From the NCBI GenBank assembly GCA_047404175.1, contig JBDOIW010000040.1, positions 21,255-85,254 on the forward strand: 64,000 bases of DNA, read 5' to 3'. This document shows positions 56,188 to 56,606 of the stretch, one piece after another; the first letter of the stretch is position 1; every line of letters begins with the position of its first letter. A program made the position numbers and the translations under genes. The stretch is from Legionellales bacterium. Its GTDB lineage: Bacteria > Pseudomonadota > Gammaproteobacteria > M30B25. The notes under the pieces were generated by a model that ran no database searches, had not been told where the DNA came from, and saw only the letters and a program-made list of their open reading frames with translations.

Positions 56188-56228
56188 CAAAAAAAAACAG
56201 GGAGAAGTTTTTCTCAAACTTCTCCCTG
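56188..56228 (-). terminator. strong Rho-independent terminator (minus strand) with no upstream ORF
   Basis: A perfect 13-bp stem (CAGGGAGAAGTTT/AAACTTCTCCCTG) with a 5-nt loop is followed on the minus strand by T9. The plus strand has no T-tract. Confidence 0.65.
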
Positions 56229-56606
56229 CGATCATCCGTGATGTAGACTTAGGCTCTAGCTTACCAAGTCCAGGACTTAACTCGCTTTGGAGTACTCAAG
56301 CTGTACACTTTCCTTTCTGATTTTTATTATTCCTTGCTATTTCAGCTTGGCGTACACATCCTCGTCTACGTTCATTCAATTTATATCTGAGTGGATCATA
56401 ATGCAAGTGACATTTTGCAATTAAAAGACTTGTATTTTATTTTTTTCAATAGAGTTAGATACCTAGAGTATCATTTTTTTTTGTCATAATTTTATTTCAG
56501 AGAGAACTCAAAATACTACACTCCATTCTCTTACAAAAAACCAGTATTGTGTCATCGAGAGTTACCAGGTATGATGTTGACTGATAGAATAAACAAGGAT
56601 TAACGC

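Follow-up and report, generated by a model that had tools for sequence, protein, structure and literature searches.

A predicted small RNA between tsaB and fabI in a marine gammaproteobacterium, conserved in three lineages and possibly a decoy for a CsrA/RsmA-family regulator

Results

A conserved minus-strand unit lies between tsaB and fabI

The DNA analyzed here, referred to as the window, is a stretch of 64,000 nucleotides (nt) from a bacterium recorded as belonging to Legionellales (contig JBDOIW010000040.1). Within it, the divergent genes tsaB (55547-56143, minus strand, start codon at 56143) and fabI (56607-57368, plus strand, start at 56607) are separated by a 463-nt intergenic region. 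On the minus strand of this region, at 56189..56372, is a unit of about 185 nt (184 nt) that is conserved in three lineages and that we predict to be a small RNA (sRNA). That it is a real, independently terminated non-coding RNA is very likely. Its 5′ end was placed from promoter geometry and the onset of conservation, and its 3′ end falls within the U-run of an intrinsic terminator. An initial annotation of this DNA had proposed a Csr/Rsm-type sRNA on the minus strand. The independent sRNA is borne out by conservation, compensatory changes, a promoter and the lack of an open reading frame (ORF), while the Csr/Rsm label is plausible but unproven.

The tsaB-fabI synteny is kept in two further lineages, L082/L087 and L086, and these were compared with the window throughout. 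FabI is 83% identical to that of the window in L082/L087 and 76% in L086, and TsaB of L082/L087 is 57% identical. The sRNA unit was recovered in all three lineages by nhmmer and alignments. From position 1 to the hairpin designated P4 below, the RNA body is 93% identical to the window in L082 and 90% in L086. By comparison, four-fold degenerate sites of fabI retain 38% identity in L082 and in L086 and those of tsaB 21% in L082, the spacer between the terminator and tsaB is 67% identical in L082, and the upstream intergenic region is 74% (L082) and 69% (L086) identical. Judged from these identities, the four-fold sites of fabI and tsaB are saturated between lineages, and the alignments indicate that the RNA is under strong purifying selection. 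The constraint on it equals that on codon position 2 of FabI, at a distance where synonymous sites saturate, which suggests that the RNA is important.

No ORF on either strand of the sRNA region is conserved in start, frame or length. The initial annotation had found no ORF of 60 aa or more and no plausible small ORF here. ORFs of at least 60 aa are indeed missing from the region, and the four ORFs of 32-46 aa in it are not conserved in the relatives. The locus could nonetheless be imagined as a small protein gene, or as a type I toxin-antitoxin pair in which a hydrophobic plus-strand ORF of 45 aa (56287-56424) is matched with its antisense RNA. There is a 36-aa ORF on the RNA strand, the 45-aa ORF is antisense to it, and a 46-aa ORF spanning the terminator (56180-56320, plus strand; 2824-2964 in L081) was predicted by automatic gene calling. 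However, length, start codon and frame are not kept in L082 or L086. The 36-aa ORF begins within the -35 hexamer, is interrupted by a stop codon in L082 and has another start in L086, and neither the 45-aa nor the 46-aa ORF is intact in either relative. The 46-aa ORF is almost certainly spurious, and this explanation was rejected for lack of ORF conservation, leaving it barely credible.

The unit ends in the strongest intrinsic terminator of the window

A search for hairpins followed by T-runs, together with compensatory changes, defined the terminator at 56189..56229 (minus strand). The hairpin, 56229..56197, reads GCAGGGAGAAGUUU-GAGAA-AAACUUCUCCCUGU, with 13 perfect pairs and one G-U pair (a 13-14 bp stem) around a 5-nt loop, and is followed by U9 to 56189. 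The 13-bp hairpin and U9 reported before tsaB in the initial annotation are therefore present, and they rank first among 88 hairpin-plus-T-run sites on both strands of the whole window, at -20.5 kcal/mol. The runner-up, at -12.6 kcal/mol, is inside a gene. Hairpin energies across the three lineages are -22.6, -24.4 and -19.7 kcal/mol. Four stem pairs have changed on both sides with pairing retained in the three-lineage alignment, and true compensatory changes were found in the terminator alone. Read on the plus strand, the hairpin has no T-run behind it, and the terminator is therefore not bidirectional. Both flanking genes diverge from the region, so there is no coding gene able to use it.

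Canonical intrinsic terminators are almost absent from the window apart from that of the sRNA, and the protein-coding genes of the window seem to be without strong ones.

The conservation might instead reflect DNA-level regulatory sites for the fabI and tsaB promoters, with no RNA gene and with the hairpin acting as an insulator or arising as a chance palindrome. This is a divergent promoter region, and conserved blocks lie outside the RNA too, for example at 56451-56469 and 56543-56554. However, about 150 contiguous nt at 90-93% identity far exceed what transcription factors need, and the substitutions keep RNA pairing, among them the four stem pairs altered on both sides. Only on the minus strand is the hairpin followed by a U-run, and the predicted fabI promoter is located elsewhere, at 56562-56590. 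Sites acting at the DNA level are thus a highly improbable explanation.

Conserved promoter hexamers and upstream blocks precede the unit

The promoter-like element TTGCAT-17-TAAATT named in the initial annotation is present on the minus strand (56406..56401 and 56383..56378), and both hexamers are conserved. The -35 hexamer, TTGCAT (TTGAAA in L086), is a weak match to the consensus, and the -10 hexamer, TAAATT (TAGATT in L086), keeps an invariant TA..TT in the three lineages. Together they match the sigma-70 consensus at 7/12 positions, which is why a consensus scan did not list this promoter. Its support comes from conservation of the hexamers and not from a strong consensus. The 17-nt spacer and the 6 nt between the -10 hexamer and the RNA body differ among lineages while the hexamers are kept, a pattern expected of a real promoter with a start near 56372.

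Further upstream, at about -46 to -97 (56418..56469, minus strand), are blocks that are invariant or nearly so in the three lineages, unlike the rest of the upstream intergenic region, which is 69-74% identical. They consist of ACTCTAGGTATCTAACTCT (56451-56469), an A-tract (56433-56450) and CAAGTCTTTTAATTG (56418-56432), and are candidates for an UP element and transcription factor sites.

Two other elements were seen nearer to fabI. The window group and L082/L087 share TGACACAATACT at 56543-56554 (minus-strand reading), and TGTAAGAGA at 56527-56535 (TGTGAGAGA in L082) resembles a GacA/UvrY half-site of which the second half is missing. These may be fabI operators or distal sites of the sRNA promoter.

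The predicted structure is a three-way junction followed by two hairpins

Consensus structure was predicted with RNAalifold and accessibility by partition-function folding. Folded as single sequences, the RNAs of all three lineages are predicted to be more stable than shuffled ones, with z-scores of -3.3, -4.4 and -2.6. In the predicted consensus fold, a three-way junction (P1-P3) is followed by hairpin P4 and then by the terminator, all read on the minus strand. Helix P1, which closes the junction and is invariant, pairs a 5′ strand GUAGAC.AGG (56360..56369) with CCU..GUCUAC (56243-56253). Hairpin P2 (56290..56357) is formed by GUAC..CAAGCUG and CAGCUUG.GUAC and carries a purine-rich loop of 39 nt (56304-56342). 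Hairpin P3 (56253..56285), GCG...UUAAGUC-loop-GACUUGG...AGC, has a loop that is variable in sequence and length (CUG, AUGA, AUAA). Hairpin P4 (56231..56242), AUCA-CGGA-UGAU, is invariant in the three lineages. Standard pairs fill 99.5% of pair cells in the alignment, versus 31-40% when partners are slid. P2 has a single G-C to G-U change that keeps the pair, and P3 has three one-sided substitutions, each of which preserves pairing.

Riboswitches are commonly built in this way, with a three-way junction whose junction and loop sequences are highly conserved and a terminator behind it. The element is also directly upstream of tsaB and in the same orientation, with the terminator ending 45 nt ahead of the tsaB start codon in the window and spacers of 44-59 nt across the three lineages, and two genes for leucine-rich repeat (LRR) proteins follow tsaB on the same strand. 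It could be a cis-acting 5′ leader of this tsaB-LRR cluster, either riboswitch-like or a protein-dependent attenuator, at which transcription from the same promoter stops or reads through into tsaB. However, a conserved antiterminator was not found among the three lineages. The best pairings of the upstream RNA with the 5′ arm of the terminator are weak, at -7.7 to -9.8 kcal/mol, gapped and differently placed in each. The terminator arms have diverged with no matching changes upstream of them, the terminator itself is unusually strong (-20 to -24 kcal/mol, U9), and no Rfam cis-regulatory family matches the element. Moreover, all three lineages have a -10-like element between the terminator and tsaB, from which tsaB could be transcribed without read-through. 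From its sequence, a possible extended -10 of tsaB is TGATAAGCT in the window (56172..56180, minus strand, between the terminator and the tsaB start) and TGATAAACT in L082/L087, and the L086 spacer carries TACAAT. We regard a cis-acting leader as quite improbable.

Conserved GGA motifs are predicted to be exposed in the P2 and P4 loops

The initial annotation had pointed to six GGA motifs upstream of the terminator. Six were counted in the 184-nt stretch, compared with a mean of 1.6 per 185-nt segment over both strands of the window, where only 0.5% of segments reach six; counted by A(N)GGA, no segment of the window exceeds it (a tie for first, top 0.04%). Four of the six are invariant in the three lineages. 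These are, on the minus strand, GGA-1 in CGAGGAUG (56357-56364), at the 5′ strand of P1, GGA-2 in CAAGGAAU (56329-56336), GGA-3 in AAAGGAAA (56309-56316) and GGA-4 in CACGGAUG (56233-56240). Around GGA-2, L086 has CACGGAAU in place of CAAGGAAU (CAAGGA to CACGGA), and A(N)GGA is retained.

GGA-2 and GGA-3 are AAGGAA motifs situated 20 nt apart within the P2 loop, and their probability of being unpaired is 0.7-1.0 in the three lineages. GGA-4 is in the P4 loop and is unpaired with a probability of 0.6-0.9. The consensus for RsmA/RsmF binding is CANGGAYG, with GGA required in a hairpin loop (bioRxiv 10.1101/315341). CACGGAUG is a perfect match to this consensus, with its GGA in a hairpin loop beside the terminator, and is also near the CsrA consensus RUACARGGAUGU from systematic evolution of ligands by exponential enrichment (SELEX).

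Other GGA-dense stretches of the window lie inside genes, save one at the leader of rne, the gene for RNase E (9783-12314). At 9469-9798 on the plus strand, A(N)GGA is frequent (6 starts per 185 nt) in the 264-nt rne leader and in the last part of the ORF before it, and apart from the sRNA no further non-coding part of the window is GGA-dense. The Rfam family rne5 had no match in the window at gathering thresholds.

The sRNA may act as a decoy for a CsrA/RsmA-family regulator

Of the explanations considered, we favor an independently transcribed, trans-acting sRNA that serves as a decoy for a CsrA/RsmA-family regulator, and put this at somewhat below an even chance. Unpaired Shine-Dalgarno-like motifs in a stable, strongly terminated sRNA resemble CsrA/RsmA decoys. 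The transcript would begin about 7 nt past TTGCAT-17-TAAATT, behind the A-tract and the two conserved upstream blocks, and would stop at the strong intrinsic terminator before tsaB. The two AAGGAA motifs of the P2 loop would suit, with their 20-nt distance, both faces of one CsrA dimer, and CACGGAUG in the P4 loop and CGAGGAUG in an alternative 5′ hairpin would present further GGA. A 20-nt spacing is reportedly near optimal for one CsrA dimer bridging two sites, according to the dimer geometry of Mercante and co-workers in 2009. With one or two dimers bound per RNA, CsrA would be titrated off the ribosome-binding sites of its target mRNAs. In this scheme we infer the transcription start, expression, CsrA binding and regulatory outcome alike.

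Kulkarni et al. (2006) described sRNAs that regulate CsrA by five features, namely an intergenic location, richness in A(N)GGA, a rho-independent terminator, GGA in loops and an upstream box (PMC1488887). The location, the terminator and looped GGA are found in this sRNA. A fourth feature, motif richness, holds relative to the surroundings, but the four GGA conserved across lineages, at about 1 per 45 nt, are sparser than in the classical members.

Several observations weigh against a decoy. The fifth feature, a conserved 18-bp GacA/UvrY box, was not found. An imperfect palindrome, TGCAAAATGTCACTTGCA (56402..56419, minus strand; -47..-30), is like the GacA/UvrY box (TGTAAGN6CTTACA), but was rejected as a GacA box. 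It departs from the box by 3 mismatches in the window, by 2 in L082 and by more than 4 in L086, it overlaps the -35 hexamer, and matches of this kind occur at chance level in the window (29 found versus 35 expected). The other conserved upstream blocks bear no likeness to the box. The missing box does not exclude a decoy mechanism, since RsmV and RsmW are also without GacA control. Among the motifs themselves, the expectation that GGA falls in hairpin loops holds for GGA-2, GGA-3 and GGA-4, which are predicted to be unpaired in all lineages, and fails for the others. The minimum-energy fold has GGA-1 largely base-paired, and an alternative 5′ hairpin, only 1.6 kcal/mol less stable, exposes it by placing GAGGAU in a hexaloop. 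Neither CUGGAC in P3 nor CAGGGAG in the terminator, the remaining two, is conserved, and both are paired; the GGA of CUGGAC is lost in both other lineages. With 3-4 conserved accessible GGA in about 185 nt, the motifs are far sparser than in CsrB, RsmY or RsmZ and few for a sponge, and the window shows no excess of the 8-mer CANGGATG (6 found versus 7.6 expected). P1, P4 and most of P2 are without covariation support, as they are invariant.

The searches for known families and for a partner protein also count on this side. The initial annotation had suggested a covariance-model search for CsrB, RsmY and RsmZ. At Rfam gathering thresholds the whole window gave four tRNAs only, and no CsrB, CsrC, RsmX, RsmY or PrrB_RsmZ. 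At 56100-56650 with E<=10, the matches were chance ones driven by the terminator hairpin, mostly to eukaryotic microRNA and small nucleolar RNA families. No csrA ORF was found in the roughly 74 kb read (the 64-kb window and a 10-kb extension, L092) or in the relatives' fragments, and the presence of a Csr system in this organism is assumed.

The near-total invariance of the P2 loop fits base-pairing or another binding protein equally well, which weighs further against a decoy. The RNA could act in trans by base-pairing, with Hfq or ProQ, or through another protein, and its GGA motifs would then be incidental to a purine-rich seed or an (ARN)n Hfq loop. All evidence for an independent sRNA gene applies equally to such an RNA. 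The 39-nt single-stranded loop is almost invariant, as a seed or a surface for protein contact would be, and it contains five consecutive A-R-N triplets (AGG AAU AAU AAA AAU). ARN triplets and a strong terminator with a long U-tail are typical features of Hfq-binding RNAs. The sparse conserved GGA and the lack of a GacA box also agree with this explanation. However, the unpaired purine-rich, Shine-Dalgarno-like segments would not pair with ribosome-binding sites, and the perfect CANGGAYG hairpin beside the terminator is left unexplained. None of 51 translation-initiation regions of the window stood out in a crude RNAduplex screen. The scores for fabI (-35.1) and tsaB (-28.3), against a mean of -31.8 and a standard deviation of 7.3, come from long, gapped duplexes and are uninformative. 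We consider a base-pairing RNA, or one that binds another protein, unlikely but worth keeping in mind.

RsmV of P. aeruginosa is the nearest analogue among known sRNAs

If the sRNA is a decoy, its nearest analogue is RsmV of P. aeruginosa, a GacA-independent sRNA of 192 nt with six GGA motifs, four of them in loops, and a narrow taxonomic range (bioRxiv 10.1101/315341). The two are alike in size (192 versus about 185 nt), in being intergenic and independently transcribed, in their CANGGAYG sites, in having six GGA of which about four are in loops, in the lack of GacA control and in restriction to a narrow taxon. They differ in that no sequence or covariance-model similarity is detectable between them. 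The present sRNA has one full CANGGAYG hairpin, and two of its sites share one large loop instead of occupying separate stem-loops. Binding and function have been demonstrated for RsmV, whereas a decoy role is predicted here.

RsmX, RsmY and RsmZ of Pseudomonas and Legionella and CsrB and CsrC of Enterobacterales and Vibrio are likewise intergenic, with a rho-independent terminator and looped or unpaired A(N)GGA (features i-iv of PMC1488887), and as in the present sRNA a GGA site lies just upstream of the terminator. In contrast, they carry 5-22 GGA motifs at about 1 per 15-20 nt, compared with 3-4 conserved in about 185 nt, and they have an 18-bp upstream box for GacA/UvrY/LetA, which was not found for this sRNA. 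None of their Rfam models matches it. McaS of E. coli is a dual-function RNA that base-pairs and also sequesters CsrA via two GGA motifs (bioRxiv 10.1101/315341). Few GGA motifs together with a long conserved single-stranded sequence are shared with McaS, which leaves room for a mixed mechanism. The two have no sequence relation, however, and the crude screen found no target complementarity for the present sRNA.

The RNA was found in three rare marine lineages only

Protein searches with TsaB and FabI led to the two further lineages and no more. The exact proteins of the window were found only in the Logan assemblies SRR27444463 and SRR27444428, in one NCBI contig and in short marine/TARA fragments. 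In a scan of GTDB genomes anchored on FabI, the best identity among the matches listed was 60%, and the sRNA element was present in none of 80 loci among those matches; true relatives may lie beyond the matches listed. FabI is about 60% identical to proteins of Thiodiazotropha, Sedimenticola and Legionella. The best matches of TypA to named genomes are at 71-73% (Acidihalobacter, Sulfuriflexus, Thiohalobacter), with none above 73%, which points to a deep marine gammaproteobacterial lineage and lends no support to a place in Legionellales. A two-motif pattern scan of JGI metagenome DNA gave no match, and a 20-mer scan of JGI metagenomes gave two, which were rejected as chance occurrences within high-GC coding sequence. 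The sRNA had no match in a plasmid blastn search. No second copy or paralogue was found in the window, the 10-kb extension or the relatives' fragments. As far as these searches reach, the sequence family of the sRNA is new, as it matches no Rfam family and is confined to three rare marine lineages, and its functional class is probably one already known.

TsaB is unusually divergent, at 57% identity between lineages whose FabI reaches 83%. Its match to TIGR03725 (E 1e-14, under the curated cut-off) involves the N-terminal 100 aa alone, and a search of 5.8 billion proteins with TsaB gave two relatives and no more. Directly downstream of tsaB, at 53435-55489 on the minus strand, are genes for two LRR proteins of 374 and 264 aa, which match LRR_6 and LRR_TMOD-LMOD and, weakly, XopAC/STM4015-like families. 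The order of tsaB followed by LRR genes, on the same strand as the sRNA, recurs in L087. The presence of eukaryote-like LRR proteins suggests a host-associated lifestyle. On the polished long-read contig of L087, fabI (3288-4519) was called as 172 aa with about 80 N-terminal residues missing, which is probably a frameshift or an assembly error and not a true truncation.

The element might also represent a new class of structured RNA, built on a three-way junction and an ultra-conserved purine loop of 39 nt, that acts in cis on the effector-like tsaB-LRR cluster or binds a protein other than CsrA. We see this as rather improbable. The lineage carrying such a class would be a deep marine gammaproteobacterial one that is probably host-associated.

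Implications for an organism known from metagenomes

The sRNA is a clean candidate for a new RNA family, with three lineages, a defined structure, a promoter and a terminator. To our knowledge, hardly any regulatory RNAs have been described from marine gammaproteobacteria that are uncultured. In Legionella and Pseudomonas, the CsrA switch governs replicative versus transmissive or virulent states. If the sRNA is indeed a CsrA decoy, it would mark the output node of a global post-transcriptional switch, and would open a way to study how lifestyle is controlled in an organism that is known from metagenomes only.

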